Shown: piece by piece, positions 18,995 to 50,175 of the stretch
How the letters are laid out: each line of letters opens with the position of its first letter
Position numbering within the stretch: the first letter of the stretch is position 1
DNA from: an uncultured Nitrospiraceae bacterium
GTDB taxonomy: Bacteria; Nitrospirota; Thermodesulfovibrionia; Thermodesulfovibrionales; UBA6898
DNA: 64,000 nt
Direction: 5' to 3'
NCBI GenBank assembly: GCA_963811165.1
Contig: CAWEQH010000010.1
Coordinates: forward strand, 864,001 to 928,000
Translations under genes and position numbers: made by a program
Notes under the pieces: generated by a model
Databases searched by the model: none
Seen by the model: only the letters and a program-made list of their open reading frames with translations
What the model was told of the DNA's origin: nothing

Positions 18995-19362
18995 CGGTTC
19001 TCCTCTCTTTCCGTATGCATCTCCATTCCTCACTTATTGTGAGAATAACTGCTTCAGCAGTTCCACTCCTTTCCATTACCATTATAAGTCATTTTTTTTT
19101 CTCCTGCCACCTTCTTTTCCTCCCTGATCCGCCGGGACCTGACGGATGAAGGTTCGTCTGCAAAGTCGCAAAATTGGCGCCATTCCAAACTTCTCTCCAT
19201 TCACAGCACACGTGCCCCTTGCCAGCGGCAGTGTGAATCTCGTTCCGAAACGAATAGTCGACCCGGCAATCTTATTTACTCGATAGGTGCTGTTTGACCC
19301 TCTCGCTCAATTTCACCGGTGTCGTCGTTATCTTAACCAAGAACTCATCCCGAATGTTTTCG

Positions 19363-20213: not shown

Positions 20214-21333
20214 CCGGTAATGGGTTGGCAGTTGCCGAGCCGGAATATATGTGGTAATTTTGATCTCTTCCATTTAGTGTAACAACATAAGGCCCCTTAG
20301 ATGAATATACATGATCAGCGAGACAATCGGTGCTTCCAGTACCATCTCCAAAATCCCAGTTGCAGCTTACCGCATTACCCGGAGCGCCGGAAAATTCCAC
20401 CTCATAGGAGACCGGCCCGGCATACGGGTTAACTTGTACAAACGAATTTGGGTTTCCCCATGTAAATGGAGTCTGACCTCCTCCATGACACGATGTTGCG
20501 ACGCACGTGCCTCCCCCTGGATCATACGTGTACACAAAATTCACCGGACGGCCGTATGCAATGGTATTGGGGTTTGGCGCCACATCATATGTCCCGTTGG
20601 CATGTTTTGTGACGTCAAAAATGCTCCCGCCATCATGCGTCGTGGCGTAGTGGCACGTATCACAGCTCAGCGAGGCATGCTCAGTTAACAAATGGCTGTT
20701 GCTCTTTGGCTGATCTTGAGCGTATGAAGGTCTTCCATCAGTTGTACCGGCGCCGTGACATGCATTACATCCAATAGTTGTAAGAGTGTTCCATGCAGGA
20801 GAGGTGCCTGACGCAACAGTTCTTGGATCATTCAGTGGAGGAAGAGAACCGGAAGCACCGGTGTTTTGAGTACCCCCGGTGCCGTTGCTGTGACAATAAA
20901 TATTCGAGCATTTCATCGAACCGTTCTGAGTTATTGTCGTCCCGTTATTGCCGTTGTAAGTCCATGAAGGGTTAAGGGTTGTGCCATCATATATTGTACC
21001 AACTCCACTTCCGCCGTTTATGTTAAATCCCATTTGCAGCTTAGTGTTGCCGCATACAGGTGAGAATGGCATACCGTTAGAATGGCACTTATAACAAACA
21101 GGGCTTTCAGCTCCCCCAAATGTTGTGCCGGTATGCGCCAAGTGTGCTCCCGTGGTGAAACCCACTCCTGCAAGGCCGTCCGGACCGCCAAAAGTATTCA
21201 CAATAGGCGGGTTGCCATGACACTGGTTACACCCGCACTGAATATCAGCATAGGCGTAGGAAGATAACAACAGAAGACATACGATTGGTGCCAGAAAGAT
21301 GCCTTTTTTCATATCCTTTTTCTTCCCTTCCAT
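19441..21333 (-). CDS. Secreted multiheme cytochrome c (CxxxxCH/CxxCH type) with two PKD domains and carboxypeptidase-regulatory-like beta-sandwich tail
   Basis: CNQCH, CYKCH, CSNIYCH, CNACH, CDTCH, CVATSCH; WDFGDG and WGDG PKD motifs; YSFTNVKPGTYTV. Confidence 0.9.
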   Translation of the reverse strand: MEGKKKDMKKGIFLAPIVCLLLLSSYAYADIQCGCNQCHGNPPIVNTFGGPDGLAGVGFTTGAHLAHTGTTFGGAESPVCYKCHSNGMPFSPVCGNTKLQMGFNINGGSGVGTIYDGTTLNPSWTYNGNNGTTITQNGSMKCSNIYCHSNGTGGTQNTGASGSLPPLNDPRTVASGTSPAWNTLTTIGCNACHGAGTTDGRPSYAQDQPKSNSHLLTEHASLSCDTCHYATTHDGGSIFDVTKHANGTYDVAPNPNTIAYGRPVNFVYTYDPGGGTCVATSCHGGGQTPFTWGNPNSFVQVNPYAGPVSYEVEFSGAPGNAVSCNWDFGDGTGSTDCLADHVYSSKGPYVVTLNGRDQNYHIYSGSATANPLPVNLPPVALISNLNVTANTWTVSLTDASTDAAAFPANAIRVTWGDGYSSTGNAGAAFSHTYTAAGTYPITLSVTDAGGLSNSTTASSGPLSTFTISGTVTGASPNVNNVLVSLKSGATVVGSTYTPTSGTGTYSFTNVKPGTYTVVPSKSGVTFNPQASGSVTVGPSASGVDFAASGTATTKYSIAVTTSPVVSGATITVKNSSGTIVAQGTTNAGGTYMTATTMSNGTYSVQAYKYGVLNSTKPVTIADANASVSFP

Positions 21334-21955: not shown

Positions 21956-22022
21956 GTAATCTTGTTTAGCATAAAGAACGTTCTATGCATGCACTTTATT
22001 GTTTTACAATTTGGAGGGCAAT

Positions 22023-23907
22023 ATGGAAGGGAAAAAAGATATGAGAAAAGGCATCATTCTGTCATCAATCGTACTGTCTTCTGCTGTTATCCTCCTACGC
22101 CTACACTGCTGATTTTCAGTGCGGTTGTAACCAATGTCATGGCAACCCGCCTATTGTGAACACGTTCGGCGCCCCGAACGGTCTTTCAGGGGTGGGTTTC
22201 ACCGCGGGATCACATTTGGCACATACCCATGGAACGTTTGGCGCCGCGCAGAACAACGTCTGTTATGAGTGTCATTTCAACGGTATGCCGTTCACGTCCG
22301 TGTGCGGCAATACTCAGCTGCAAATGGGATTCAACATAAACGGCGGAAGTGGAGTCGGTACCATATATGACGGCAGCACAACCCTTAACTCTCCATGGAC
22401 TTACAACGGCAATAACGGGACGACAATAACTCAGAACGGTTCGATGAAATGCTCGAATATTTATTGCCACAGCAACGGCACCGGAGGCACGGCCAATATA
22501 AACGCTATTGGAGTGCCTCCACTGACCGATCCAAGACCGCTTACAGCCAACACGTCGCCGGGTTGGGGCGGAAGTTATCCGATGGTATGCAGCAACTGGA
22601 CCGGCCAATCCTGTTCTACTTCGGTGAGCTGTCACTTAGGCGGCTATATCATTGACCCGACGCAGACCTACAACAACTCATATCGGTCGTGCTACTACTG
22701 TCATGGACCGAACCCTCCGGGCAGCTTCACTAAACCCTCATATCCCTCAAGTCCTCACAAATGTTACGGCTGCCATAACTATCCTCCGACTTACGCACAG
22801 GACCAGCCAAAGTCCAACAGTCACTGGATCCATTCTTACTGGGCATCATGCAATGCCTGTCATTTCGCAACAACATCAGATGGAATGACTATAAAGGACC
22901 CCTCAAAACATGCTAACGGAGTGTATGATGTGGTTCCCGATACTTCTGCCCTTTATAATACGACCCCGGTGAATTTCAACTATGCATACGATATCGGGGG
23001 CGGGACCTGCAGTAATATTAGTTGCCATCAAGCAAGAGGTATAGGAACAATACAGCATTGGAGCGGCGTCTGGATAAACATCAATAGGGCATGGAATAGT
23101 GGGCCGGCATGTTACCAGATAGCATTTTCCAATGTGAACGCGTGGGGCGGCATGGCGCCATATACCTATTTCTGGGATTTCGGCGACGGCACCACCTCGA
23201 CCGATCAAAATCCCACCCACATCTACCCATCAGGAGGGACGCGTAACGGAACGGTTTATGCCAGGGATGCAAACAATCATCTGGGGGCCAGTGCCGTTTG
23301 GCCTACTGCCGAATCGGTCAATACTGCCGCGGTGGCGAACTTTGCGGTCTCTGTATACGGATGGACGGTTACGTTGACAGACTTGTCCTACGACACGGAT
23401 TACAATTCCTGCGGCCATTCGGGACCGGGGCAAATACAGATTATGTGGGGAGACATGTACGCAGGCTACCCGAGAACAACAGAGGCAATTAATTTGACCG
23501 ATCAGCCGTCGGGGAAAATTTATACCCATACATACTCCACAATGACTAACCTCCCTAATGCTCAGATATTCGATATTATCACCGATAATTCAAATGTTCA
23601 GTCACAGAAATATATGGGTGTAGCTATACCTACGACTTACACGGTCAGCGGCAGGGTGGCTAACGCCGCCGGAGCGGGTTTGCAAAATGCACTTGTTTAT
23701 TTGAGAAACATGGACGGAACAGCTCCCTCCTTCGGCACAATCGTCGTGTATACGGATGCAAATGGCTATTACACCATCAGCAATACGGCCGTAGACGGGA
23801 TCTGCTATGTGGTGAAACAACCTGTTATGTACGGTTATACCTTTACTCCGGGAGATCAGACTGTTTGCTCAGCCAGCAGCACGGTGAATTTCACAGCCGC
23901 GCCTTAG
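22023..23907 (+). pseudogene. Multiheme cytochrome c with PKD tail, paralog of 19441-21333; +1 frameshift (extra C at 22074) in the signal peptide
   Basis: Alignment with the paralog: ATC GTA TGT CTT versus ATC GTA C TGT CTT. Removing the C gives MRKGIILSSIVCLLLLSSYAYTADFQCGCNQCH in frame with the 22156 ORF. Five CxxCH, two CX4CH and one CX5CH; YFWDFGDG. Confidence 0.8.
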
Positions 23908-24046: not shown

Positions 24047-25900
24047 TTATGGATACGACTTGTGATCATGATTCACTCCGTGGCATATAAGAGTACAGTT
24101 CCCGGAAAAAGTTCCTGTGTCAATAAACAGAGGGACATTATTGGGCGGAGTCTGACTTGGAGGAGAAACTATCCTGATATCAAAATTGATAAGATGTGTG
24201 TGATTTCCGGAAAGATGATTGTCCTGTATCCCGTGTGCATCATGGCAGGCGGAACATGGGGCTCCCGCAGCAAGATGACCGCTGTGGCCGCCCTTTTTCG
24301 TGAGAGTATTTTTCTTGAAGCTATCATCCCTTAAAATGCTGTCTCTGTTATGGCACCGGTAACAGAGTGCGTAATTCTGATACATCTCAGTAGTCCCGTC
24401 GGTTGTTTCATATTCATCCCGCAATATCGGAAAATATGCTGACCCGTGTGGCCCTCTGGACATCCCATTGTCGTCACTATGACAATCAGTGCAAAAGATA
24501 ATGCTCGATGTGGAAAGCGTAGGCGCTAACTGAGAGGGGATGCTCGGAACACTCGGGTTTCGTCCCGTTCCCTCAACGGAATGGTAGGACGGATTTATCA
24601 GATCGAAAGCCAATCTCTTGTTGGCAGTGTTCACGACTCTCGGGATAACGGTAACCTGGGGGGCTAAATCCGAATGACACTTGAAACAGATTTCATATTC
24701 ATATGTGGCATTATCGACACCGACTCTGTTCATGTCCAATCCGCTTACTTTTTCGAGTCTTCCGGAAACGTAAGGAGGCGCCGCTGTCCGGCCATTGGCG
24801 GCATGCGGGTTATGGCAATCTACGCATTCCACATGACGATTCGTGATCCATACAGGACGCTCCTTCGGGTCATGAATCGCCGTCGTAGCTTCCACAGGGT
24901 GTCTCGATATTTTCTGAAACTGTGCCTTTATGTTTTTAGTTGCGACGTTCCCGTCGTGGCAGAGATAGCAGTTTTTTTCTTCCTCCTGGAAGTACAATAA
25001 TCTTTGCGCCCCGCCCGCGGAATGAGAGGTATGGCAGCTTTCGCATCCCCATTCGGCGGCAGTAACCCATGTCGGCCATTTTTTCGGAGGCACAGGAAGG
25101 ATTCTTGCCAGGGGACGCACTGTTGCCGTGGTCTTGTGGGTCCCCATCTGCCACCCGTCGACGGCGCTATGGCATTTCGTGCAAAGAGCCGAGTAGCGAT
25201 TGTCCGCAACGAGAAATTTACCGGTAAGTTTCCCGTCGAGGTCAGGGGATTTATAGGCGTCCTCGTGGGCGTCATGACAGGTCGAGCACTCGATAAAACC
25301 GTTCCCGTAAAAGATGAGCCCAGCCGGCAAAGCCGGAAAAAGTCCGGCAAGCGGATTCAGGACCGAAGCATTATAAGAAAAGGAGAAGGGGTGGTCCCCG
25401 GATAAGATCGTGCCGAGATATGACGGTCCACCCATGCTGATTGTCCCTCTCATTGCAATCCCGGATTGAGGCCTTAGGACCTCGCCAAGCGCCACTGTAC
25501 CGTCATGGCAGCTAAGGCAAAGACGTGAAGGGCCTTTCGGCTGGGAAGGGTTGGCCGCGATTGTCGTGCTCGTATAGGGAACGTAGTTGATGGGTTTTAA
25601 CGGCTTGTTCCACAAAGGCGTTTTAGGGACCGCATTATGAGGCGTGTGACAGAAAATGCAGATCTCGGTTTCGGTGAGAGATTTGATCTCACCCGGCCCT
25701 GAAACGGATAAATTGTGTTTGGTATTCATTATGCCTTCCTTTGCAGCGGCGGCAAAATTCGGGAGAACGAGCAATATACAACTGGCCGTCAAAAAAAATA
25801 AAAAGACAGGCGAACATAGAGGTGCGTAAGACAAATATTGATATCTCATATGTTTTTTCAAGTCCCTAATCCAGTCCGTGGCCATCTTCAATAATCTCAA
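24047..25900 (-). CDS. Multiheme cytochrome c (11 CxxCH + 1 CX3CH) with an N-terminal OmcE-like tetraheme module; start uncertain (25849-25900)
   Basis: NTKHNLS..EICIFCHTPHNA..PLWN..LCLSCHDG..DHP..ECSTCHDAH..LCTKCH, followed by 7 more CxxCH and CTLICH. Confidence 0.9.
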   Translation of the reverse strand: MRLLKMATDWIRDLKKHMRYQYLSYAPLCSPVFLFFLTASCILLVLPNFAAAAKEGIMNTKHNLSVSGPGEIKSLTETEICIFCHTPHNAVPKTPLWNKPLKPINYVPYTSTTIAANPSQPKGPSRLCLSCHDGTVALGEVLRPQSGIAMRGTISMGGPSYLGTILSGDHPFSFSYNASVLNPLAGLFPALPAGLIFYGNGFIECSTCHDAHEDAYKSPDLDGKLTGKFLVADNRYSALCTKCHSAVDGWQMGTHKTTATVRPLARILPVPPKKWPTWVTAAEWGCESCHTSHSAGGAQRLLYFQEEEKNCYLCHDGNVATKNIKAQFQKISRHPVEATTAIHDPKERPVWITNRHVECVDCHNPHAANGRTAAPPYVSGRLEKVSGLDMNRVGVDNATYEYEICFKCHSDLAPQVTVIPRVVNTANKRLAFDLINPSYHSVEGTGRNPSVPSIPSQLAPTLSTSSIIFCTDCHSDDNGMSRGPHGSAYFPILRDEYETTDGTTEMYQNYALCYRCHNRDSILRDDSFKKNTLTKKGGHSGHLAAGAPCSACHDAHGIQDNHLSGNHTHLINFDIRIVSPPSQTPPNNVPLFIDTGTFSGNCTLICHGVNHDHKSYP

Positions 25901-26909
25901 AGATCTGTATCCTATGGTTGAACGTATCGCTCACATAGAGCTTGCCATCAGAGCCGATGGAAATCCCGGAGGGAAGCCAGAACTCAGCCTCACCCCAGCC
26001 CCTGCTTCCCACAGTCAAAAGAAATTCTCCCGCCCGGTTGAAGAGCTGAACATTATCGAAAAGAGTGTCCACGACATAGACAGTCCCTTTCTTGTCGACT
26101 GCGACACCCTTTGGCATTGAAAAATCACCCGATCCGTCACCGTGATGTCCGAAGGCAGACAAATAGGTCCCCGATGCATCAAAGATCTGGATCCTAAAAT
26201 TCAGCGTATCCGTTACGTAAATCTGTCCTGAGTAAGTCCAAACGATGTGTGTCGGATAATTGAATTCGCCCTTCCCATCGCCTCGCCGGCCGAATGAAAA
26301 GACCGCCTTCCCATTTCTGTCGAACGCATAAATCTTATTGGAGAGAGTATCGACTACATATAAAATCTTCCTATCGGAATTATACGCGAGACCCGTGGGT
26401 CTCTTCAACGTGTCCCCGTCCGCTTTTTCGATGGCAAAAAGATAATCGCCCTGATTATCAAACACGAATACTTTGCCGGCCGCCGAGTCCGATATGTACA
26501 ACCTTGATTCGTCGTCGAAAACAAGCCCCACAGGAGACCTGATGTCACTTTCCCCTGCCGTCAGGAGCTTTACATACCGTTTTTCAGAGGGAACATAAAG
26601 GTAGACACACCCAGGGGTCGCGATGGCGAGTCTCCCGACATGATCCGTAGTGACAGCTACAGGGCGCATGAGCTCGTCTTGGCCCAGACCAAAAAATACG
26701 CTTTTCGGAGAGACGCCAGTCTCTTTGAAACCCGTAATCGTGGCGACATGCCTAATTATCGGCTTTTCAGGCGGCTGCGGCCACAGGAACTCGGCACTTG
26801 AGGGCTTCTGTTGTATGACCCAATTAGTCGCGCACCCCAAAGCCGCAAAGGGAATGAGAATACACAATGTCCCCAGCATCTTTCGCGTTGTCCTATTATT
26901 TCCATTCAT
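25866..26909 (-). CDS. NHL-repeat beta-propeller lipoprotein
   Basis: ALGC lipobox; repeated F..P.G.AVD..G..YV.D..N.RIQIF. Confidence 0.9.
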   Translation of the reverse strand: MNGNNRTTRKMLGTLCILIPFAALGCATNWVIQQKPSSAEFLWPQPPEKPIIRHVATITGFKETGVSPKSVFFGLGQDELMRPVAVTTDHVGRLAIATPGCVYLYVPSEKRYVKLLTAGESDIRSPVGLVFDDESRLYISDSAAGKVFVFDNQGDYLFAIEKADGDTLKRPTGLAYNSDRKILYVVDTLSNKIYAFDRNGKAVFSFGRRGDGKGEFNYPTHIVWTYSGQIYVTDTLNFRIQIFDASGTYLSAFGHHGDGSGDFSMPKGVAVDKKGTVYVVDTLFDNVQLFNRAGEFLLTVGSRGWGEAEFWLPSGISIGSDGKLYVSDTFNHRIQIFEIIEDGHGLD

Positions 26910-26953
26910 GTTTTTATGCTATGCAAAAAACCTGCTATGTATGAGAGATTGGC

Positions 26954-27949
26954 TCACTGATTCCCTTCCATCGTTTTCACTATCTCGATCTTCGCGTCAT
27001 GTTTCAATTCAGTTTCCCATTCCCTGATCCTCTTCTGCCGCGCTTCGAATTTCAGTCTTGCCTCGAGAAGAGGCTGAGCTTCTTCAAAAGTATGCAGCTC
27101 CTCAGGCTCATATTGATCGAGTTTAATGATATGGAGGCCGTTGGACAATTTCAAAACGCCCGAAAGCTCGCCAACCTTGAGCTTCTTTGTCTCACTGTAG
27201 AGTTCAGGCTCTTTCTCTTTCTTAATCTGAAATTGCCTCACGATAAACGTGCCGTCCGGTGTGAGGGTATTTGGGTTTTTATCCTTGTCGTTTTCAATCC
27301 TGAGGAGGATATCCTCTGCCATCCTTATCGAATCCTTATCATCGGCCTTCAAAAAAATGACCACATCGCTGATAATAGCTTTTTCCGGCTTGTTAAACTT
27401 CTCTTTCGTCTTTTCGTATTCCTTTCTGACATCATCCTCCCTGACGACAATCCTCTCCTGCACCTCTTTATCGAACACGAGATCAAAAATCAGGCCCCTT
27501 TCGATCTGTGCGGCCAATTCCGCCTCGGTAAGCGCTTCCCGATCAAGGAAGTTCTTGTACTTTTCCTCACTCCCCAGGTTCTTCTTCAGTTTGGCGATTG
27601 CCTCTTCAATGCTCTTGTGTTCCACTTTCAGTCCCAAGACTTTCGCCTTCTGACATGCAAGTTCCTGTAATATCAGCAGATCGATCGCCCGCTGCCTTAT
27701 ATTGCCGGGCGAATGGAATTCCTTTGTTGCCTTCCCGCCAATTCGCCTCACCTCGGTAGCAACTGACTTCTCGGTAATAGGTACCCCGTTGACCTTCGCT
27801 ACGTTCTCATCCCCCGCCTTACCGTGTCCCGCGCCCTCCCCGGTCCGGCCCTCAGGCCCCTGCTTGACCTCTCCTATGGCAAAGGTCTGAAACGATATAC
27901 AGACAAATACCAGCGCCAATACTGCAACAACCCCCCAAGCTCTTTTCAT
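26954..27949 (-). CDS. SurA/PrsA-like periplasmic chaperone / peptidyl-prolyl isomerase
   Basis: VAKVNGVPIT, LKVGELSGVLKLSNGLHIIKL, TFEEA, ELKHDAKIEI; start MKRAWG 27949 with RBS. Confidence 0.85.
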   Translation of the reverse strand: MKRAWGVVAVLALVFVCISFQTFAIGEVKQGPEGRTGEGAGHGKAGDENVAKVNGVPITEKSVATEVRRIGGKATKEFHSPGNIRQRAIDLLILQELACQKAKVLGLKVEHKSIEEAIAKLKKNLGSEEKYKNFLDREALTEAELAAQIERGLIFDLVFDKEVQERIVVREDDVRKEYEKTKEKFNKPEKAIISDVVIFLKADDKDSIRMAEDILLRIENDKDKNPNTLTPDGTFIVRQFQIKKEKEPELYSETKKLKVGELSGVLKLSNGLHIIKLDQYEPEELHTFEEAQPLLEARLKFEARQKRIREWETELKHDAKIEIVKTMEGNQ

Positions 27950-28081
27950 GTGCATTCTCCATTTCATATTCATACTATTGCTGTATTTATTTTGCAGAAG
28001 GAACAGCCCTGAAAAAATCCGGGGAATTCCTCCACAATTCCGATGCATTGTTGTTTTTATTTTATTCTTTTTCATTTTCGT

Positions 28082-30136
28082 TCAAAAAAGTTTCCTCCTT
28101 ATATTAATGTAAAAATACGTATAATTTGCTTTCTCGTTGCCAAAGGTAGACCTCGTCTCTTTTCTGCTGATATCCGCGCCCATCTTGAGATCGAAGATCT
28201 TGGGTCTCCTCCAGATGACGGAACTGTTGAGCGAATATGTCGCTGAGGTAAATATGCCGCTTTGCTGCTCGTAGGTGCCGGCCAGAGAAAGAGTGATATT
28301 CCTGTGCGGGAAGCGTTTATCAAACCGTACAATTCCGGAGAAACTCCGTTCTCTGTTCGTGATATTTGCCGTTCCTTGCACCTGGCCGTATGAAGCAAGC
28401 GTAAAGTTGGCGCTCGCCGACAGTTTCGCGGTTTCAGTAATGTCCCGCTGCATATTTGCCAGGGCCCTGAACGTTTTGGAGGGATTCAGATTCGATTGAA
28501 AATTCTCATACTCCACCGAAAGAGAATACCAGGGTCTTTCGCTCGAGATGCCAAAGATATCATCGCTGCTCTTTTCAGGTCCTCCCGGGATAGAACCCGA
28601 GGTGATCGTCTGTGTCACTCCGATATGAGAAGAGTAAACACTGAGGAGCCTTTCAAAAAACTGGAGTCTCAGGGAATATCCGACGCTCGTCGACTCCAAC
28701 CCGAAGACGGCAGAGATAAGAGAATAAGAAACATTGAACTCGTACACAAACTGCGGATCAGGCCTTAACGCTTCGGCCGGGATCGCTATAATTTGTATCT
28801 GGACGGTGTTGCCGATTAATACGACTGTATAGTTGATATTTTGGACGAGGTCTATAACGACGTTGCCGGGATCGGACCTGACTGTAATGCTGATGGAAGA
28901 CAGGTCGATATTGGCGTTTTGGATCTTGAATTGTCCGAACAACGCGGCACTATGGACTTCGTTCACCGTGGAGGGCGCCCCTTTTCCGTCCACCGTCGAG
29001 AGGCCCAGGTTGACCGTCGCTATCATCTGCCCTTTGGGAATATTGTTCGTGTAGGTACTGTTGAAGAAATGAGAAACTGTCGTAAGGTCCCCGGTTGAGG
29101 ACGTATTCGTCAAATAATTGAAGCTATAGGCAGTGATCAGGCTCTCATAAAGCTTATGGGTGATGGTGGCACCCATCGAGTTGGTCGTCGAGCCTAACGA
29201 CGCGGATGGGCCTGCAGCGGCGTTCGACCCCACATCGTCCCTCATATAATGATAGGAAAGGTCCGCAGCGAAATTATAGGGAAGAATGACGCTCGCAAGT
29301 TCGTTCGCTGCGAGCCTCTTGTCGTTAAGGGCCGTCGATGACGCCGGATTCACTTGTTTGAGGTTGTCCGCATTGATATCGGAAGAGAGTCGAATTCTCC
29401 CTTTTAGGAGCGGCAGCTGGTTGCTGAAGGTAAAGTCGTCCTGGGTGCCATTTGTTGTCTGTAGCCCTCCAATCAGGTTTTCGGATGTCGTGTGGAAGTA
29501 AGTCCCCGAAAACGATGTCCAGCGGGGATGATAATTTGCGATTGCCCTGAGTGTGGAGGAGTCCGAGGTGACGGACTGAGATTCGGTGCTGGAGAGAGAA
29601 TAGTTGAGCACGACAAGGAAAGGCCTCTTTTTGTATTTGAACGTGACTCCTTCCTCGGTGCTTACCCCCTGGAACCCCGGCGTGGTGGTCCCGCGGATAT
29701 ATGGGTTGTGGCGCGAAGCGTTCAACTCAAGGGTGTTGGGATGCTCCGGCAAGACTACAGCCAACAGGTCATATTCCTCTGCAAGAGCAGTAGTCCACGA
29801 TCCATTCCCTGCGGAAGGTCCGGCGAAGCCGCTATCGGTCTTAAACATCTCATGGTTCAATCCAAGAGTCACGTCTGCAAGGAACTGGATAAATTGCGGA
29901 CGAAAAATGAACCCTGCAGTGCTGAGTTCGATCCTTTCCGTAAAAAAAATATCCGTGGTGTTCAGCCCTTGCGATGCTGAAGTATTCTTAAGCGAGTTGT
30001 AAAGGGCGCCGACTTGAAGCTCGCCCTCAACGCCGTACAGCCTCGGAACGAACTGGCGCATATCAGCAGGGGCAAACGAGGGAACTGCAAGAAATACCGT
30101 CAGCAGGAAGACAACGTATTTCAAGATCATTCTCAT
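28082..30136 (-). CDS. Large outer-membrane beta-barrel protein with an inserted extracellular domain
   Basis: Signal peptide, alternating amphipathic beta strands, C-terminal YINIRRKLF (BAM-type terminal Phe). Confidence 0.8.
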   Translation of the reverse strand: MRMILKYVVFLLTVFLAVPSFAPADMRQFVPRLYGVEGELQVGALYNSLKNTSASQGLNTTDIFFTERIELSTAGFIFRPQFIQFLADVTLGLNHEMFKTDSGFAGPSAGNGSWTTALAEEYDLLAVVLPEHPNTLELNASRHNPYIRGTTTPGFQGVSTEEGVTFKYKKRPFLVVLNYSLSSTESQSVTSDSSTLRAIANYHPRWTSFSGTYFHTTSENLIGGLQTTNGTQDDFTFSNQLPLLKGRIRLSSDINADNLKQVNPASSTALNDKRLAANELASVILPYNFAADLSYHYMRDDVGSNAAAGPSASLGSTTNSMGATITHKLYESLITAYSFNYLTNTSSTGDLTTVSHFFNSTYTNNIPKGQMIATVNLGLSTVDGKGAPSTVNEVHSAALFGQFKIQNANIDLSSISITVRSDPGNVVIDLVQNINYTVVLIGNTVQIQIIAIPAEALRPDPQFVYEFNVSYSLISAVFGLESTSVGYSLRLQFFERLLSVYSSHIGVTQTITSGSIPGGPEKSSDDIFGISSERPWYSLSVEYENFQSNLNPSKTFRALANMQRDITETAKLSASANFTLASYGQVQGTANITNRERSFSGIVRFDKRFPHRNITLSLAGTYEQQSGIFTSATYSLNSSVIWRRPKIFDLKMGADISRKETRSTFGNEKANYTYFYINIRRKLF

Positions 30137-30194
30137 CGCCGCTATATAGCTCGTGTATCACTTTTCTGTTCTCGAAACAATTACTGTCCTCATT

Positions 30195-30713
30195 TCATTT
30201 CAGCAAATACTGTTGATCGGAACTATGGGCGTTGTGGCATTCCGTGCACTCCGCTTCAACACCTGCATGCGCCCCATTTCGTTCGATCGCACGCTTTTCA
30301 TGACAAAAAAGGCAAAACTGCTTCGGATCCGAAGAGAGGAGAAAACCATAGGTCGATCCATGCGGCTCGTGGCATACCCTGCAGCCTCCGGATGCCACTG
30401 GACCGTGGATATATTTCTTTCTTATATTCAGGTCATGGCACTTAAGGCAAAGCTCCTCAAGCGGCAGGAGAAGCGCGTTTGTCCCCCTCTCGTGGCACGC
30501 GTTACAAAGCCCTGCGGCGTAAGGACCGTGCGGTCTAAAGCCGGCCCTCTCGGCCAGAGCCGGTCCCGCCGGCTTTCCCTTGGCTTCTACTTTCTTCTCC
30601 TTTTCCGGCGGCGGCACGCCCATAAAGAAAAAATTCAACACCTTATATCTGGTTGCCGGCTCGCATCCGCATACGAGGGCGGAAATTAATAAAGAAAGTA
30701 CAATCAGTCGCAA
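30195..30713 (-). CDS. Pentaheme cytochrome c lipoprotein (doubled CxxCH type)
   Basis: VCGC lipobox; CNACH, CLKCH, CRVCH, CLFCH, CTECH; HGPY/HGPV motifs. Confidence 0.88.
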   Translation of the reverse strand: MRLIVLSLLISALVCGCEPATRYKVLNFFFMGVPPPEKEKKVEAKGKPAGPALAERAGFRPHGPYAAGLCNACHERGTNALLLPLEELCLKCHDLNIRKKYIHGPVASGGCRVCHEPHGSTYGFLLSSDPKQFCLFCHEKRAIERNGAHAGVEAECTECHNAHSSDQQYLLK

Positions 30714-30819
30714 TTGGTAGATCCATCGTGAGGCAAAGACAAAGGGTTCATGAGGACCTCTTTGAAATAGGGCGATGAGATCCTTTGCCGGATGCTAAAT
30801 CTCCCAATTTCCCCCTTCC

Positions 30820-31989
30820 TTATTTCCCTTTCTTCTCCTCTGGTTTCTCGCGTTTTTCCATCTCCGGCAGCGACTTGAGTTCTTCTTTGAGCAGCTTCAT
30901 CGCCTCTTCATCTGAGGGATATTTTTTTCCCTTCTCTTTCCCGAACCCGAAGACCTGCACCATCCGGTCCCCAAACTGATTGACGACGAACACGAGGTAT
31001 TCGACCTCGAAATTCGGGTCCGCATACTGCTGAAAATACTTCACGTTCTTGTAATCAACCGCTACCTTGGCAGGCAGATAGAACTCGCCGGGTAATCTTC
31101 CGGCCTTTCCGAAATGGCCGAACCAAAACAGCAGTTGTCCCTCGCCGGTAAAGAGCTGGACATTGTCAAACGCGGCGTCTACCACATAGAGACGGTTCTC
31201 CCTGTCCGTCGCCAGACCCTTCGGCCGGGCGAAGTGGCCCGGGCTTTGCCCGGCTTGCCCATACGCGCCTCTATTATGGCCGTCCCTGTCGAACTTGACG
31301 ACCTGAAATCTCTCATCATCGGACACATAAAGCATTCCGTCTTTATCGAAGGTAATATCGGTAGGCAGCCCGAGACTTTCGGAAGGGTTCTCTTTGTCCT
31401 TGCCGATCCGTTTGAGCTCCCTACCCGTTTTTTTGTCGAGCACCCAGATTACACCGTTCTTTATGTCGGACACATAGAGCTTGTCTTCAAAAGGCACGGC
31501 ATCCACCGGTCTCCAAGTTCCAGGCTTGCCGAATGCCTTGACAAAGCGGTCATCGCGATCAAAAACAGCCACCTGCAGTCTTACCGTGTCCGTAACATAC
31601 TTATTGCCTTCTTCATCGATTTCGATATTTATGGGTTGCAGGAGTCTTCCAGGACCTGTAGCCCCCTCCATAGGAGAATACGTCTTCTTGTCCAGATCAA
31701 AGACAAAAACAGTGCTGTTTGAGTCGCACACATAGATTTTCCCATACCAGAGGGCCACACCATAAGGCTTATCCAGTCTCTTGCCGCTCTCCTTCTCTCC
31801 CGTAAGATAGGCTTCGAATCCGCTCTTTTCGCCCTCTATGTCCTTTTCTCCGGTAAAGTTGGCAAGCCACTGCAGACGCGGAAGCTCCGGGGGAGGTGGA
31901 TAGAACAGTTTGACTTGTACCTTCTCGGGTGCAGCGCATCCGCTTAAAATAATTACGCATACCGCCATCGTGAATAATTCTCGTCTCAT
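30820..31989 (-). CDS. NHL-repeat beta-propeller lipoprotein
   Basis: LSGC lipobox (start MRRELF 31989); FARPKGLATDRENRLYVVDAAFDNVQLF. Confidence 0.9.
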   Translation of the reverse strand: MRRELFTMAVCVIILSGCAAPEKVQVKLFYPPPPELPRLQWLANFTGEKDIEGEKSGFEAYLTGEKESGKRLDKPYGVALWYGKIYVCDSNSTVFVFDLDKKTYSPMEGATGPGRLLQPINIEIDEEGNKYVTDTVRLQVAVFDRDDRFVKAFGKPGTWRPVDAVPFEDKLYVSDIKNGVIWVLDKKTGRELKRIGKDKENPSESLGLPTDITFDKDGMLYVSDDERFQVVKFDRDGHNRGAYGQAGQSPGHFARPKGLATDRENRLYVVDAAFDNVQLFTGEGQLLFWFGHFGKAGRLPGEFYLPAKVAVDYKNVKYFQQYADPNFEVEYLVFVVNQFGDRMVQVFGFGKEKGKKYPSDEEAMKLLKEELKSLPEMEKREKPEEKKGK

Positions 31990-32221
31990 CTGTGTTCTCC
32001 CTGTTTCATCTGTGATGTAGAATGGTCTTTGAAAGTCCTGCATGTAAGAAATAAATGCGTTCGACACCAGACCGGATGTTCGTGTAGCAATCTCTATACA
32101 TATTGCCAGTGCTTATCTTACTATCTTTTTGATTGGAAGTAAATTTTTCGCCGGTCATCTTTTTATCTTCCCAACTCCTTGACTCCGTCATTTCATTATA
32201 TTTGGAGGTCAAACGATAATT

Positions 32222-32238
32222 AGCAAATAGCGTGCTAA
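32222..32238 (-). promoter_or_regulatory. Sigma54-like promoter with a non-canonical -24 element (TAGCAC)
   Basis: TTAGCACGCTATTTGCT; identical at 45029-45045 and 50096-50112. Confidence 0.55.
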
Positions 32239-32303
32239 GTTTCGCATCTGCGCAATTATGAGTGAGACTACTCCGGACCGCAGTGCGCATAAACTCAGAT
32301 TTT

Positions 32304-32371
32304 GTCACGCCGGGCTTGATCTGGAATCCGGGACCCTTGAAATCACCGTATTCCCGCCTTCGCAGGGATGA
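32304..32371. repeat. REP-like palindromic element within the duplicated promoter cassette (also ~45115-45188, ~49953-50026, degenerate ~21800-21860)
   Basis: GTCA.GCCGGGCTTGA...TTGAAATCAC..ATTCCCGCCTTCGCAGGGATGA resembles GTCATTCCCGCG-type REP sequences. Confidence 0.55.
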
Positions 32372-32483
32372 AGAAGTATTTCACGTAATACACAGATCCC
32401 TACTATATTAATTCAGTTAATCATCGACCTTCCAAAAAATTATTTGTCAGGCCGGACCTAATACATTGCTTTTCGATCAGCTG

Positions 32484-32519
32484 GGGTTATTTCACCCCAA
32501 AAAGGGTCATTTTAGTCAC
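32484..32519. promoter_or_regulatory. Enhancer-like double-box motif, copy 2
   Basis: GGGTTATTTCACCC-CAAAAA-GGGTCATTTTAGTCAC. Confidence 0.75.
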
Positions 32520-32586
32520 GCGGTTGATAGATGATCAATCCTGGCTTAGCTCATTTTGCCTGGACTTGAATTCGTTGGCAACCAAT

Positions 32587-32619
32587 AAGAGGGGGGAATG
32601 GTTCCCATTCCCCCCTCTT
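32587..32619 (-). terminator. Strong intrinsic terminator after the OmcE-like gene
   Basis: 15-bp stem AAGAGGGGGGAATGG/CCATTCCCCCCTCTT. Confidence 0.8.
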
Positions 32620-32636
32620 TCATTGCCTCGAGCAGA

Positions 32637-33446
32637 CTATAAGGTCGAGCACTTCTTGTGGCAGGTGCAGCAAAGATTACTCGATGTGTTTGAAACCCAG
32701 AGGAAGTAATCGCCGTCGTTCTTTGTGTTGTGAACGTCGTGGCAGGAACCGCACTCAACATTGCCGCCGTAAAGCGCGTCGTTGATCGTCATGCCGTGAG
32801 TGGACCCGATGAATGCAGTACCCGTCGGCTGGATCTCGTCATCGCCTCCAACTATCACTGCCTGATAACCGATTCCAACTGGATGATGGTTGCTCAAGTC
32901 GCCCCCCGCGCCGATCAAGATTCTACCGGTGGCTTTAAGATCACTTGCATTACCCCTAAGGTTGGAGTCGACAGACCCGTAAGCGCCGATCGCGATCGTG
33001 CCGTCATGGCAGCTCAGGCATAGCTTCGAAACTCCGCCCGGCTGTCCAATGACTTGGCCGTTTACTCCGGAATTCAGCTGATGCGCAATGCTGTCGGGGA
33101 TGTAGGGTTGACCGGGGTCGGTATTCTGATAGCCGGTAAAATTCGCCGTTGTTACCGCATGGTTCCAAAGAGGGTAGTAAGTCAGGCCTGCTGCTGCCGC
33201 GTCAGCCGGCTTTATCGTATGGTGCGGAGCGTGGCAGAATATGCAGATTTCATTGTATTGGTTGGGAGTGGCAGGCACCCAAAGGCCTTTTGTTCCCGGA
33301 CCTGTTGAACTGAGGTCGTGGGAAGTACCTTTAATGCCTGATCCAGGACCATTTGGGCCCATCGTCGCAGAGACGAGGGTAAATCCTAATAGAAGTATCC
33401 CCATCGCTATGAAAAGCGCTAAAACATGTTTTCTCATTTTCTTCAT
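32637..33446 (-). CDS. omcE: OmcE-like tetraheme cytochrome c, candidate nanowire subunit
   Basis: IKGTSHDLS..EICIFCHAPH..PLWNH..LCLSCHDG..DLSNHHPV..VECGSCHDVHN..FL..S.LCCTCHKK matches the Geobacter OmcE motif order. Confidence 0.8.
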   Translation of the reverse strand: MKKMRKHVLALFIAMGILLLGFTLVSATMGPNGPGSGIKGTSHDLSSTGPGTKGLWVPATPNQYNEICIFCHAPHHTIKPADAAAAGLTYYPLWNHAVTTANFTGYQNTDPGQPYIPDSIAHQLNSGVNGQVIGQPGGVSKLCLSCHDGTIAIGAYGSVDSNLRGNASDLKATGRILIGAGGDLSNHHPVGIGYQAVIVGGDDEIQPTGTAFIGSTHGMTINDALYGGNVECGSCHDVHNTKNDGDYFLWVSNTSSNLCCTCHKKCSTL

Positions 33447-33554
33447 TTCTCCTTATCCTTTTTTTGTCTGTTAAAAATAACCCTTTTTCGCCTATCTCTA
33501 TACCCCCGTATCTTTGATAGGCCATTTCTACTGATGGCAGACAATATTTTAGAG

Positions 33555-33570
33555 AGCAACTATTATGCCA
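33555..33570 (-). promoter_or_regulatory. Sigma54 -24/-12 promoter of the omcE-like gene
   Basis: TGGCATAATAGTTGCT (GG-N10-GC) immediately past the upstream terminator. Confidence 0.75.
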
Positions 33571-33575
33571 TCTCT

Positions 33576-33603
33576 AAAGGCAGGCGGTTGCCCGCCTGCC
33601 TTT
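33576..33603 (-). terminator. Intrinsic terminator of the giant cytochrome gene
   Basis: AAAGGCAGGCGG-TTGC-CCGCCTGCCTTT. Confidence 0.8.
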
Positions 33604-33616
33604 CTGAGAAGCAGAA

Positions 33617-36600
33617 TTACGGGAACGATACAGGTGTGTTCACACTTGATACCGCAACAGACTTAGTCGAATTCAGGACACCGTATTTGTACGCCTGAAC
33701 TGAATAAGTGCCGGCCGACAGGGTTGTCGCCGTCGTGTAAGCGCCACCTGCATTCGTGGTCCCCTGCGCAACAATCGTCCCGGACGAATTCTTCACGGTA
33801 ATTGTCGCGCCGCTGACAACCGGACTCGTGGTTACAGCGATGCTGTACTTCGTTGTAGCCGTTACCGAAGCCGCAAAGGCGGCTACAGTTGCACTCGGGC
33901 CTACCGATACGCTGCCTGATGCCGGTGTAAGGGTCACACCCGTCTTGAACGGAACAACGGTATAGGTACCGGGCTTCACATTCGTGAAGGTATAAGTCCC
34001 TGCACCAGAAACTGGAGTGTAGGTATTTGCGACAACGGTCGTCCCGCTCTTCAGACTGACAAGCATATTATTGACATTCGGGGAAGCCCCGGTCACTGTG
34101 CCTGTGATCGTGAAGGCAGTGAGCGCACCGCTCGATGCAGTAGCGCTGTTGCTTAGCCCACCCGCATCGGTTGCTCTCAACGTGATGGGGTAAGTGCCTG
34201 CCGCCGTATAGGTGTGCGAGAAAGCTGCCCCCGCATTGCCCGTCGAGGAATAACCGTCACCCCAGGTTACCCTGACAGCATTCGTCGGGAAGGCGGCGTC
34301 GTCTGTGGAAGCATCGGTAAACGACACTGTCCAGGTATTGGCATCCGTGGTCACGGTGCCGATTACAGCAACTGGAGGCTGGTTCACAGATACCGGCGCA
34401 ACCATATGGGACACGCTGGCCGAAAGGCCGGAATCTGCGTTAAGGGTAAGGGTTACGGTTCTCGGCGTGGCATCGCTATAAGTGCGAGAAGTAGTTATGC
34501 CCGTACCCGTCGTCGAATCACCGAAATCCCAACTATATGTGCAAGCTGCGCCGCTTGGACATGTAGACGTACCGGCATTGAAGTTGACTTTGTAGGCTAT
34601 CGTGGAATCGTCTGTCCAAGTGAAATTCGCTGCAGCAGCAACACCTGCAGTAGCAGGGTCCATTAGATGCGCCAGCTGGGTTGATGTGAAACCGAGCAGA
34701 TCGTTTGCGCTGATGTATGTCTTAACGTTGACACACTTGTCGGCAGATGTACCATCCTGTCCAACGCAATACCCTGTTCCTGTCATCCCGCACGGAACAT
34801 CAGGCCCCATAAACCCATAATTTGTAAGACATCTTGCTGCCTGGTCCCATCCTGCCGCATGAGCTGGGTTGTCAGGATTCTTCTCTGCAAAGATAGGCCA
34901 TGTTAAATCCAGCGGACCATTGCTCTGCAGCACGACCTTATTGTGTGTACGCGATTGTGCCCTTGTGTACATAAGGGAACCCAAACTGCCGAACGGATCT
35001 CGGCCAAACTGGAACAATGCCTCGCTGTCAGGAAGGCTACCCTGGCAATCGGCATTTACCGCGCAAGCCTGACCTGCCCTGAAACCGCCATTGTTACCTG
35101 CGCCAGTGGAAGCGCACGTATGGGGCCAAGGTGACCCCGGCAGTGGTGCACCTGTACACTGACCGGCAAACATCTGGCCAACCGGCATGTCAAAACCAAT
35201 CATACCGGCCGTCGGCGCAACAAATGTAGGACTCGGCATACAGTTGTTGACGTTCACAGGGAAACCTAAAGCATCAGCCTGACTCTTCATGCCGGCCATA
35301 GGATTACAGCCGTGTGAGGTGCCATCCTGCGTCTCCCTCAGGAAAAGGCCCTGAAGCCCTGCTATCCCGTCGTTAAAGCCCATCATGCCGGCGGTGCTGG
35401 CAGCATGGGTTGCATCGATGCCTGTATGCGGCATGCCCATCATCGCGTCAAAGCCCGCGTTCATTAATGCGGTGCATTGACCGATGGTGGTGATTCCCAT
35501 GCCAGACAACAGACTATTTGGTGAACATGCTGCATTAGGATCATTCAGATTGCCTGTCATCTGATTGAAATAATAACTGTCCGGTGTCAACGGGAACATG
35601 GAATCTAACATCCCTGCGGGGTTCGTCATCCCATGAAGCATCGACCCAAGCATATCCAGACCTGCTACGCCGTAAACGTTCTGTGTCGAACAACCTGAGC
35701 CGCCGCATGTGTTGGCTCCGCAGAACTCTTTGGCGCAGTCGAAGTCTGCGAACAGCGCCACAGGGTTCTTAATGAGATCGAATTTTCCGACAAAGAAAGC
35801 GCCGATCATCGGGACCATGTTGTCGATCTGATTGACATCACCGGCTGCGAATTGAGGAGTGGCCCTCTCCGTGTACGGCTGAAGGCCCTCGAAGAAGCCG
35901 ACAGAATACGGCGAATAGTTGGGATTTGGACCATTGGGCATTCCATGGGCGTCAAACGTGTAAGGCTGCGCGCTCGAGTGGCAGTTTAAGCAGCCGCCTC
36001 TTTCAGTCGCGCCCAGAGCCCACTCTTTCGGAGCTACGCCGTGGGTCTCATCAAAGGAGGCATGGAATATCTTTTCGAGCTTCAGTTGTTTACTGGAGTC
36101 GCTAGAGAACATCGTGGCACTCTTGGCCCTCATAGCGTTCCTCTTTGCTATGGTGTCCATTGCGAGATTGTCCGTAAGGACCCAGTTGTCAAACACAGGC
36201 GCCATAGAGCCGCCGTTGATACGGACGCCTTGCAATGATCCGTCCGCTATCGCTGCCGCCGCTACGTCGATAATGTCCCTCGCCATCGAAGGAGTTACAT
36301 TGGCCGCATTGCCAGGCCGGCAAGCGCCCGGGATGCCCGTTGCGCCCATGTTCATGTCCGGGTAGGTCGCATAGCCGGGACAGTCGGCGTCAGAGTTACA
36401 TGTCCACAAGACCTTGACGCCACTCTGACATGTCTTGATAGCGTTTGGTTCATTGTCGAGGTTAAAAATGGTTGTGTTATCGTTGTTGGCCGGGTCCTCA
36501 TTGGCTGCATCCACCCCGGTGTCATTGCCAGGAGAGTTCAGAACCAGCGGGTCACTCGTTGTGAGTCTCGACGTGGCCGAAGTGCCGAAGGTGCCGGGGG

Positions 36601-38704
36601 TCCAATTGTTGATCACGCTTATCCAGTTAGGAACTTCAATAGGCGTGACCGGGTAGATCTTCGTTTCGCCATACTTGTGGGCCCATTGATGGAGCTGCTT
36701 GGTAGAATCGCCGGAAGCGGTGACAAAGTCGTAACTGAAGTCGTATACGTTTCTGTTGCCGCCGGCCGCCTCTGTGCCTCGTTTAAATTTGCCCGCCGTG
36801 AAATCTCTGTACTTCAGTTTGAAAGGTTGAATATAGATTTCCGGTATATGGCAGGTCGTACATCCGATCTTGGCAAGATGTAACGCAGGGAAGCTGCTGT
36901 GTGTCGGGGTCGGAGGGAAAGGACTCACCGACTTAGGCGTGCCATCTGCATTAAAATATCTCGGATGGGTATTGTCGACGTGGCAGCTTTCGCACGAGAC
37001 AGTGCCGTCAATGTGGTTAGTGCCATAGGCGTCCTTGAGCGAGTCGCCCTGCGCGAAATTGTGGTCGATGCCCTGAATCACCTCCTGGGGATAGGCCACG
37101 CCGTGATCGGTCGCTGCGGGAATGGTCACCGCGCCGCCCTCAAGGATAGACGAGCCTAATCCATAATGGCAGGTTGCGCACTGCATGCCTGCCGCGTCAT
37201 GGACATCCTGATCAGGCATTTTCGCTTTGGTCACCAGGGGACCAAGTTGCGTTGTGTAAGTGTGATCTGTAATAGGCGTACCCGGCATAATGCCGAGACC
37301 GAACATTGCACTGAACATGCTCATACCCCATTTATCATTCGGGCCTGCGCCGGTCTTATCGCCTCTTTTGCCCATACCGGTCTTGCAGCCCAGTTCCATC
37401 CACCGCACAGGGTTCGAATTGTCGGCGGATAGGCTTCCCGGGTCGACGTCTAAAACAGTGCTTTTAGGGTTGATGATGAGGTAGATACCATACCCGTATC
37501 TCACCGGATTCAGCATGCCCGGGAGACCCGGTGTGTTGTCGTCACGTCCGTGACACACCGTACAGTTCTGGCTGTTCGGCGTGCCCTGGATCATGCCGGC
37601 CGAGATTGTTGACGGAACGCCGCTTATGCCGGTAATGTGCAGATGTCCGTCGGGAGCCATGGAAAGACTTGCTTTGGCTCCTATACCCAGCGAAGCGGCC
37701 AGGTTGAACTGTTGGTCCTGTATCGCCAGTGTTCTGTTGAACGAGTCGTATTTTGTGCCTGGCAGATACATGCCGGCGCCGTTTCTGCCCATCATATTGG
37801 GATCGGTCAGCGCAGGATCGGTACCATTAGGAGCCAACTGATATGCGCAGTAAGGATCGTTGATTGGTCCGAGCTGTACACCTGAACCTAACACGCTACG
37901 GCCTGCGCAGTCGATGGAATTAAGGAACGCACGACCGTTGCCCGATATGTTCGAACTATCATGCAGGTGGCAGAGGAGACAATCGACTTCTGCCTTGTTG
38001 GTACCGCTCATGTGGGTTGCGGTGATCCCGCCAATGGGATCATCGAGCGTCGGAGGTTTGAAATAATAGAAGTCGCCGCTTCCCTCCCCGGCCGAGCCAT
38101 AATCATTCCTGTCCCTGTCATATTCCAGCTGACCGCCACCGGCGTGACAGTGACCGCAGCTGAATGCCCAGTCCTGCATGCCGGTTTCCATCGATTTTGC
38201 TAATTGTGCTGGTGTATCAGAAGGTGAGCCCTTTGCCGCCAACTGGCGGTTTGAGGGTGGTCAATACTTGCCGTACATGCCCGCGGTGCTGGTGAAGAAC
38301 AGATCACCGAATTGGGCCCTGTACGCGTTGGTATAGGTTTCGTTACGTCCCTGATTCATGTGTTTTCCAACGGAAACACCATGCGCAAAGGACTTGGTCT
38401 GCGACGCTTCCCAGGTAACAGAAGAATCACTGCTTGCAAGCACACCCTGAACGTGCGTCGAATATTTATCTCCCGAGCCGTAGTCGTGGCCTGCAAAATC
38501 GATGATGTCACCTGATGAAATGTGGCATGCGCGGGCGCAGGTCGCCTTCGGGCTGTACGGCGTTGCGCTAGTCACCGGACTGCCGTTGGCCTGCAACAGC
38601 GGTACATCTCCGCCGGAATGGGCGGCCATTGCCACCGCGGAACCGGCGAAGAACAATATAGCAGAGAAAACTGCTATATATACTTGTAAACTAATTTTTT
38701 TCAT
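33617..38704 (-). CDS. Giant (~1695 aa) secreted selenocysteine-containing octaheme cytochrome c (OTR-like core, Cys/Met-rich insertions, PKD and beta-sandwich tail); predicted Sec148 at TGA 38261-38263
   Basis: ORFs 38261-38740 and 33617-38242 are in frame across one TGA (GMYGKY-U-PPSNRQLAAK) with a SECIS hairpin directly downstream. The signal peptide is only in the first ORF. Hemes: CARACH, CGHCH, CLLCH, CTVCH, CATCH, CESCH, CTTCH, CLNCH. Confidence 0.82.
38229..38257 (-). promoter_or_regulatory. Bacterial SECIS element
   Basis: UGA-CCA-CCCU-CAAA-CCGCC-AGUU-GGCGG-CAA-AGGG. Upper stem starts 11 nt after UGA, apical loop 16 nt after UGA with G at position 2 followed by U; lower stem CCCU/AGGG. 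Confidence 0.8.
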
Positions 38705-39192: not shown

Positions 39193-39209
39193 TACAATAG
39201 CCATGCCAA
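39193..39209 (-). promoter_or_regulatory. Sigma54-like promoter of the giant cytochrome (GG-N10-GT variant)
   Basis: TTGGCATGGCTATTGTA, ~125 bp from enhancer motif copy 3. Confidence 0.55.
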
Positions 39210-39331: not shown

Positions 39332-39368
39332 GGGTCATTTCACCCCAAAAAAGGGTTATTTTAGTCAC
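39332..39368. promoter_or_regulatory. Enhancer-like double-box motif, copy 3
   Basis: GGGTCATTTCACCC-CAAAAAA-GGGTTATTTTAGTCAC. Confidence 0.75.
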
Positions 39369-42220: not shown

Positions 42221-42228
42221 TTCATCTC

Positions 42229-44965: not shown

Positions 44966-45028
44966 CTTTTTATCTTCCTGCCTCCTTAACTATGTAATTT
45001 TATTGTCTTCGGAGGACAAACGAGAAAT

Positions 45029-45045
45029 AGCAAATAGCGTGCTAA
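45029..45045 (-). promoter_or_regulatory. Sigma54-like promoter (TAGCAC variant)
   Basis: TTAGCACGCTATTTGCT. Confidence 0.55.
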
Positions 45046-50112: not shown

Positions 50113-50175
50113 ATTTCTCGTTTGTCCTCCGAAGACAATAAAATTACATAGTTAAGGAGGCAGGAAGATAAAAAG

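Follow-up and report, generated by a model that had tools for sequence, protein, structure and literature searches.

The smallest omcE nanowire clusters described so far encode OmcE, a large beta-barrel and two each of multiheme cytochromes and beta-propeller lipoproteins, and Nitrospirota are among their hosts; the secretion, capping and chemical coupling of cytochrome nanowires are stated as open questions in the same article (PMC13712944; for this and all other articles cited here, statements refer to the part of the text that was available). Here we describe a locus in a 64,000-nucleotide stretch of an uncultured Nitrospiraceae bacterium (assembly GCA_963811165.1, contig CAWEQH010000010.1, positions 864,001 to 928,000; hereafter the window), in which an OmcE cluster is preceded by the gene for a giant octaheme cytochrome c with an in-frame UGA, very likely read as selenocysteine (Sec). 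Comparison with related loci suggests that this seleno-cytochrome is one of several exchangeable, PKD-tailed giant cytochromes that occupy the slot 5' of omcE.

A Sec-containing multiheme cytochrome is already known in MccSep/ExtKL polysulfide reductase (five hemes, ~49 kDa, Sec325 in the C-terminal domain, periplasmic tetramer), which occurs in Desulfobacterota and Thermodesulfovibrionia and sets an example of Sec paired with Cys at a heme (PMC13510729). It resembles the giant cytochrome in being a multiheme c-type protein with a UGA-encoded Sec, a downstream hairpin and an Ig-like domain. We rejected an identity of the two, since the giant gave no match to the MccSep profile NF040886 at E 0.01 and has eight hemes and an N-terminal Sec; nothing in the whole genome scored above the cut-off of this profile. 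The resemblance may be at most a parallel in chemistry. The closest structural relative appears to be OTR, in which a conserved Lys is the heme-2 ligand, and MmcA of Methanosarcina (TIGR04314) is an OTR relative without this ligand that takes part in extracellular electron transfer; it differs in being archaeal and encoded in an Rnf operon, with seven hemes and a lost heme-2 motif (PMC11024163). A GenBank-annotated selenoprotein within the OTR family TIGR04315, and no PKD cytochrome, is listed in a review, as far as its available part goes (PMC13188914).

Probable selenocysteine at an in-frame UGA

The open reading frame of the giant cytochrome extends from an ATG at 38704 to a stop at 33617 and contains a single in-frame TGA (38263-38261). 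A previous interpretation of this DNA, made without database searches (the sequence-only reading), had taken the product for a seleno-cytochrome, and the alternation of UGA and Cys at this site, together with a conserved hairpin, bears this out. Among 97 distinct motif sites in homologs, drawn from loci of named genomes, class genomes and metagenomes, 84 have TGA, ten have Cys and three are spurious matches with other codons. The hairpin loop AGTT is found in all 84 TGA alleles and in one of the ten Cys alleles; the full 5-bp stem is present in 82 of the 84, two of which keep it by compensatory changes on both sides. The Leu codon is TTG in 84/84 TGA alleles, against a background of 167/2,253 elsewhere. 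Folding of the SECIS-like hairpin alone is weak (z -2.0) and a loose genome-wide search for the hairpin pattern was unspecific, but we accept the element because the conservation of loop and stem is decisive. Bacterial SECIS elements follow a consensus with a G in the apical loop. The genome encodes tRNA-Sec and a selA above cut-off, and the sole genome without a selA match among ten tested is an incomplete one with a Cys allele.

Based on these comparisons, the in-frame UGA is very likely read as Sec. A true stop codon or a sequencing error, leaving a split or dead gene, might be suspected in an assembly that is frameshifted elsewhere (dsrA, rpoB and a canonical OTR gene). However, the same UGA and hairpin recur in 84 distinct alleles with Cys in ten others, contigs from two other runs of one study show identical letters at the codon and no alternative, and heme 1, the signal peptide and conserved His are encoded before the UGA, so that we regard this reading as extremely improbable and as already refuted by the comparative data. 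Of 77 database homologs, one of them the cut product from the window itself, 73 begin immediately downstream of the site, and four read through it with Cys; the family has been cut at the UGA by gene callers, with the loss of its signal peptide, heme 1 and Sec.

A second Sec subfamily is shorter (~900-1,000 aa), frequently stands in tandem with the giant type and has the same hairpin; it was observed at L043 14345-17416, L125 16986-20000 and L127 11808-15072. In addition, UGA occupies the corresponding position in a family of shorter OTR-like octahemes at loci L046, L062, L065, L193, L194 and L198, where members from Bacteroidota and Ignavibacteria have Cys; this is another seleno group that had gone unrecognised.

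An OTR-like core

The signal peptide of the giant cytochrome is of the ordinary kind, with no lipobox. The protein has about 25 Cys outside the heme motifs, and its tail matches two PKD domains (34100-34642) and carboxypeptidase-regulatory-like domains in Pfam. Its core was expected to have an OTR-like fold, which profile and structure comparisons support. Profile matches to OTR reached 99.3% directly, and 100% and 99.8% via an intermediate family hosted by Bacteroidota, Ignavibacteria and Desulfobacteraceae. A model of the core (pLDDT 64, pTM 0.72) matched Shewanella OTR (1sp3) with an rmsd of 4.7 over 330 aligned positions and a Z of 7.7, a value within the ambiguous range of the structure-comparison tool, the next match having Z 3.6. 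PDB sequence searches with the seleno protein returned only PKD domains or nothing significant, and the TIGR04315 profile gave 19.8 bits against a curated cut-off of 375. These results place the protein within the OTR superfamily, as a distant member. It has in common with OTR the fold, the order of the eight heme motifs and the aromatic-Cys position before heme 2. Its length is about four times that of OTR, it carries large inserts, a PKD tail and a domain rich in Cys, and it does not have the G-K Lys that ligates heme 2 in OTR.

By motif, U160 takes the aromatic-Cys place of the OTR sequence N-N-F-C (Cys64, counted in the 1sp3 sequence). All eight heme motifs are conserved in 33 full cores, as are R141, R165, K458 and R459 (basic residues at 97-100%), C452 (91%) and seven to eight spare His; the Lys two residues before Sec is Arg in 9 of the 33 and absent from the intermediate family. 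In OTR, the counterpart of K458 is presumably part of the distal heme-2 pocket. A canonical OTR gene is also present in the same genome, split by a frameshift (L211, L222; contig C10:1068325-1069610).

An OmcE cluster with a SurA-like gene

The giant cytochrome is the first of eight co-oriented genes which the sequence-only reading had reported for positions 24047-38704, and all eight are present on the minus strand (Table 1). On the evidence of sequence matches, the genes from 24047 to 33446 are the published OmcE cluster plus a SurA-like gene. The tetraheme protein encoded at 32637-33446 matches both solved OmcE chains (9yuq of D. soudanensis, E 2e-18; 7tfs of G. sulfurreducens, E 4e-16), and its four CXXCH motifs and four spare heme-ligating His (HDLS, PH, NHHP, VH) align with both structures. 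Among 25 homologs three of these His are invariant and the fourth is kept in at least 90%; a heme-free model of the protein was too poor for use (pLDDT 40). Two multiheme cytochromes and two beta-propeller lipoproteins lie alongside, as in known omcE loci (PMC13712944), in agreement with the identity proposed for the tetraheme and its companions. Counts of CXXCH-type motifs are seven CXXCH and one CX3CH in the giant, four in the tetraheme, five in the small lipoprotein and eleven CXXCH plus a CX3CH in the last gene, and Pfam matches were obtained for the two NHL propellers and the SurA-like PPIase. The companion genes proposed earlier thus stand, whereas the beta-barrel at 28082-30136 was not directly borne out: its 684-aa product had no Pfam or NCBIfam match and gave a weak porin lead (score 0.89). 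The gene is kept at the same cluster position in related loci, and we retain the barrel label because of its place in the published cluster.

Compared with the OmcE clusters of G. sulfurreducens and D. soudanensis, with which it shares the tetraheme, two more cytochromes, two propellers and the position of the large barrel, the present cluster differs in the SurA-like gene within it and the PKD-tailed giant 5' of omcE, and its filament is predicted. Neither 'SurA' nor 'seleno' occurs in the main text of PMC13712944, as available. The same genome has a second, frameshifted omcE cluster (L001 19150-19926, L002 1-8443; end of contig C8, start of C7), which ends in a PKD-tailed cytochrome and is without a seleno gene; contigs C8 and C7 may join.

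The suspected non-Geobacter origin is supported by EF-Tu, which falls in the same 90% cluster as a protein named Thermodesulfovibrionales, among the 15 of 34 cluster members listed. In a quick tree, the seleno protein's closest named relative carries this label too, and the host is likely a Thermodesulfovibrionales bacterium. The genome also contains dsr genes, with dsrA in pieces and dsrD-like and cobB-like genes behind; the dsrA breaks are probably assembly errors, because contig C8 has many indels and rpoB is broken too.

The slot 5' of omcE

To evaluate the link between omcE and the seleno gene, we used 88 distinct seleno loci, found by an alignment scan of genome contigs (a single-protein scan returned nothing). 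Among the 34 loci with a motif match and at least 7 kb upstream, a stand-alone omcE is present in 23 and a SurA-like gene in 30. The linkage between an omcE-like and an OTR-like UGA gene, suspected from this one locus, is therefore conserved in relatives, in both Nitrospirota and Desulfobulbia, but it is obligate in neither direction. The strand of omcE is opposite to that of the seleno gene in 16/31 loci and the same in 15/31; in Nitrospirota omcE is mostly divergent and within 2 kb, and in Desulfobulbia other PKD-tailed cytochromes lie between the two. In the nine class genomes that have a seleno gene, omcE adjoins it in seven.

The omcE matches split into a close group (at least 138 bits) and a distant group (below 95), of which we examined 20 loci each. 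Of the 13 close-group loci with at least 3.5 kb of 5' flank, 11 have a PKD-tailed giant cytochrome in the slot 5' of omcE, versus 0/20 distant-group loci, as scored with a PKD-tail profile built partly from the proteins scored here and in the tail counts that follow. The 11 occupants comprise three of the Sec type and eight whose cores are unrelated and carry 7-16 heme motifs, one of the eight being fragmented; Pfam PKD was above cut-off in five of seven non-Sec partners tested. Among complete seleno genes, omcE lies beside 21 of 29 with a PKD tail versus none of five with InlB repeats in its place, the latter being one event at best because they form one clade of related, incomplete genomes. 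Based on this pattern, we propose that PKD-tailed cytochromes are exchangeable in the slot 5' of omcE, the seleno protein being one of several occupants.

Giant non-Sec PKD-tailed cytochromes of the slot that belong to no named family (7-16 heme motifs) are encoded at L109 12637-16143, L121 5748-9593, L122 2703-8890 and L124 11413-14106. Within the window, the last 328 aa of the cytochrome at 19441-21333 and of the seleno protein (33617-34600) are 70% identical, their cores being otherwise unrelated, which suggests a recent tail swap or conversion.

Promoter-like sites and probable shared regulation

An exact sigma-54 consensus precedes omcE (33570-33556), one of two exact sites in the window and 21 in the genome; the other in the window lies before the gene at 21333, and one-mismatch sites precede the seleno gene and the assembly genes. 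The motif occurs before 15 of 25 related omcE genes versus 3.8% of random windows, and a looser form within 600 nt before 10 of 25 seleno genes. The sigma-54 promoter attributed to omcE is upheld by these data, whereas the strong terminator also attributed to it is not: the 14-bp hairpin has a weak U-tract, and a terminator scan found 18 sites versus 17.0 in shuffles overall, no excess.

A single operon was rejected in view of the hairpins, the separate promoter-like sites and the opposite-strand omcE in 16/31 loci; with a 12-bp hairpin between the seleno gene and omcE, the run looks like three transcription units. A tandem element with five copies in the genome, four of them in the window, precedes the seleno gene as well as the assembly genes, and it recurs ahead of six homologous seleno genes. 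The three units are likely to be under one regulator. A ~330-nt upstream region comprising the tandem element, a palindromic hairpin and a sigma-54-like site is duplicated (32000-32520, 44970-45340 and 49800-50170), preceding the assembly genes and two response-regulator genes.

Other features of the window

Four paralogous 190-aa proteins (55-90% identical) are encoded among two-component genes at 39731-40303, 40625-41194, 43493-44065 and 51068-51640, one of them with a weak heme-NO-binding match. The 5' end of the plus-strand cytochrome gene at 22156-23907 (window positions 21985-22160) shows a TGA and a broken signal peptide relative to the paralog at 21333, which is likely an indel rather than Sec.

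Table 1 Features of the locus, with positions counted from the first letter of the window.
Feature	Position	Strand	Remarks
Giant seleno-octaheme cytochrome c, 1,695 aa	33617..38704	-	signal peptide, OTR-fold core, Cys-rich middle domain, PKD-PKD-carboxypeptidase-regulatory-like tail (predicted)
In-frame TGA, context G-K-Y-U-P-P-S-N-R-Q-L, residue 160 counted from TTG 38740	38261..38263	-	very likely read as selenocysteine
SECIS-like hairpin, 5-bp stem, AGUU loop, 16 nt 3' of UGA	38236..38249	-	
Sigma-54-like promoter, 1 mismatch, ~490 nt 5' of seleno gene	39194..39208	-	
Tandem upstream element 5' of seleno gene, candidate activator site	39332..39368	-	
12-bp hairpin 3' of seleno gene, candidate terminator	33576..33603	-	
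Exact sigma-54 consensus 5' of omcE	33556..33570	-	
OmcE-family tetraheme nanowire subunit	32637..33446	-	
14-bp hairpin 3' of omcE, candidate terminator, weak U-tract	32588..32618	-	
Second copy of tandem element, 5' of assembly genes	32484..32519	-	
Sigma-54-like site, one mismatch, 5' of assembly genes	32237-32223	-	
NHL beta-propeller lipoprotein 1	30820..31989	-	
Pentaheme lipoprotein cytochrome	30195..30713	-	
Large protein (684 aa) at place of omcE-cluster outer-membrane beta-barrel	28082..30136	-	basis: position in cluster (PMC13712944)
SurA-like PPIase	26954..28075	-	
NHL beta-propeller lipoprotein 2	25866..26909	-	
12-heme cytochrome; N-terminal four-heme part OmcE-like (30% identity)	24047..25900	-	
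PKD-tailed CxxxxCH-type cytochrome, 5' end seemingly frameshifted	22156..23907	+	
PKD-tailed CxxxxCH-type cytochrome; exact sigma-54 site at 21391-21377	19441..21333	-	
Hexaheme c7-type cytochrome, candidate periplasmic carrier	18195..19082	-	
Two further SurA-like chaperone genes, upstream of seleno gene	41438..43365	-	

Discussion

We tentatively propose, with a probability of about 0.42, that the locus encodes an OmcE cluster plus an exchangeable partner, namely an exported OTR-fold Sec octaheme that would be held by its PKD tail at the surface or on the wire, cleave S-S bonds and exchange electrons with OmcE. Export of the seleno protein is likely, given its OmcE-like composition (a K+R+E fraction of 0.07, compared with 0.05 in OmcE and 0.12-0.34 in periplasmic or lipoprotein neighbours), its many extra Cys and the tail pattern. 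S-S bond cleavage is likewise likely, by analogy with MccSep and because Sec would stand beside heme 2 with basic residues.

The locus could operate as follows. A sigma-54 activator would switch on the seleno gene, omcE alone at a high level, and the assembly genes jointly. Hemes would be attached in the periplasm, where SurA-like chaperones could hold the proteins export-competent, and the barrel with its lipoproteins may pass or anchor the exported cytochromes. The 12-heme protein, OmcE-like at its N-terminus, might be the point from which OmcE polymerises, and the PKD-PKD tail may serve as the common handle of several unrelated giant cytochromes. Sec, at the invariant OTR Cys place beside the catalytic heme 2 and among basic residues and Cys452, would attack an anionic S-S substrate such as polysulfide, with chemistry much as in MccSep on a different scaffold; both reduction and oxidation would be allowed. 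Sulfide oxidation coupled to iron oxide in Desulfurivibrionaceae uses an OmcS-like cytochrome (PMC12545173), and the hosts of the seleno gene include Desulfurivibrionaceae; Otr, PKD and seleno are not mentioned in the available part of that article.

Besides the limits given above for the Z-score and the PKD-tail profile, a number of observations weigh against this proposal. Foldseek with the core model also ranked 1sp3 first, at E 0.057, with no match at E 0.001, and pLDDT is below 50 around Sec, where the model is unreliable. The Lys ligand of OTR heme 2, eight residues before the Cys or Sec in an alignment by motif rather than structure, is not kept; Sec was replaced by Cys at least three times on the quick tree; and the spare His could make all eight hemes bis-His, which would argue for a carrier. 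Ig-like domains are no proof of export, because periplasmic MccSep has one (PMC13510729), and type II secretion would be an alternative exit, with two secretins above cut-off in the genome. Concerning the wire, omcE is absent from 11 of the 34 seleno loci. It is also unmatched in all five genomes of the InlB-tail clade, whereas four of five other genomes without an adjacent omcE have a match elsewhere. The enzyme can thus occur where the wire does not, with the caveat that the five are related, incomplete genomes of one clade. Conversely, across 301 genomes of the class the seleno gene occurs in 9 and an omcE-like match in 125 (some being the N-terminus of the 12-heme protein), so that most omcE carriers are without the seleno gene; it is missing from all four same-genus genomes and from the second omcE cluster of this genome.

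These observations bear on three other readings. The seleno protein could act in the periplasm as a sulfur or selenium oxidoreductase in the manner of OTR and MccSep, and neighbour omcE only through a shared regulator, chaperones and growth condition, with no physical link to the wire. This would fit the ordinary signal peptide, the separate transcription units, the SurA-like gene in 7 of 11 loci without omcE, the existence of a clade without omcE and the Ig-like domain of periplasmic MccSep (PMC13510729). It leaves unexplained why unrelated giants with the same tail occupy the same slot (11/13 versus 0/20), as well as the OmcE-like composition and the many non-heme Cys, and we consider it possible but rather improbable. 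The extracellular-type composition would also be accounted for if the seleno protein were exported and surface-bound but stayed off the OmcE filament, being wired to the conduit of pentaheme, barrel and 12-heme proteins or leaving by type II secretion; the two secretins, and the replacement of the tail by InlB repeats in the clade that lacks omcE, agree with this. However, tail type tracks the presence of omcE and the seleno gene is most often directly 5' of it, which makes such an arrangement unlikely.

The protein might also be no enzyme at all, but a wire cap, a branch or an adhesin-like carrier, with Sec ligating a heme or tuning redox properties and the PKD giants providing a choice of heads for contact with minerals or partner cells. 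The same slot does take non-Sec giants whose cores are unrelated, the conserved His suffice for eight bis-His hemes, and MmcA is an OTR relative acting as a pure conduit (PMC11024163). We nevertheless hold this reading to be quite improbable, since the heme-2 motif lost in MmcA is kept in 33/33 cores here, and a costly Sec with its unchanging hairpin, together with the invariant basic residues, accords with catalysis.

The OmcE cluster itself was already known, and the family of giant Sec cytochromes and the slot pattern are the new part. We found no published description of either in a search that covered mostly non-subscription literature and main texts; homolog tables in the supplements of PMC13510729 and PMC13712944 may bear on this point. 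The available parts of two preprints (10.64898/2026.05.27.727921 and 10.1101/2025.05.29.656830) do not mention the family.

A broader picture, which for now is speculative and doubtful, is that this OmcE subtype could be a modular wire-plus-head machine, in which barrel, propellers and SurA would export PKD-PKD-tailed giants and mount them on the filament, one head being an extracellular selenoenzyme with which uncultured Desulfobulbia and Nitrospirota would link long-range electron transfer to S-S chemistry on polysulfide or solid sulfur. The PKD tail common to unrelated giants, tracking one omcE subtype, offers a testable handle on wire secretion, capping and coupling. The exposed selenoprotein family occurs in groups including sulfur-cycling lineages with poorly known elemental-sulfur enzymes and, if catalytic, it would represent a second, independent Sec-plus-heme design beside MccSep.

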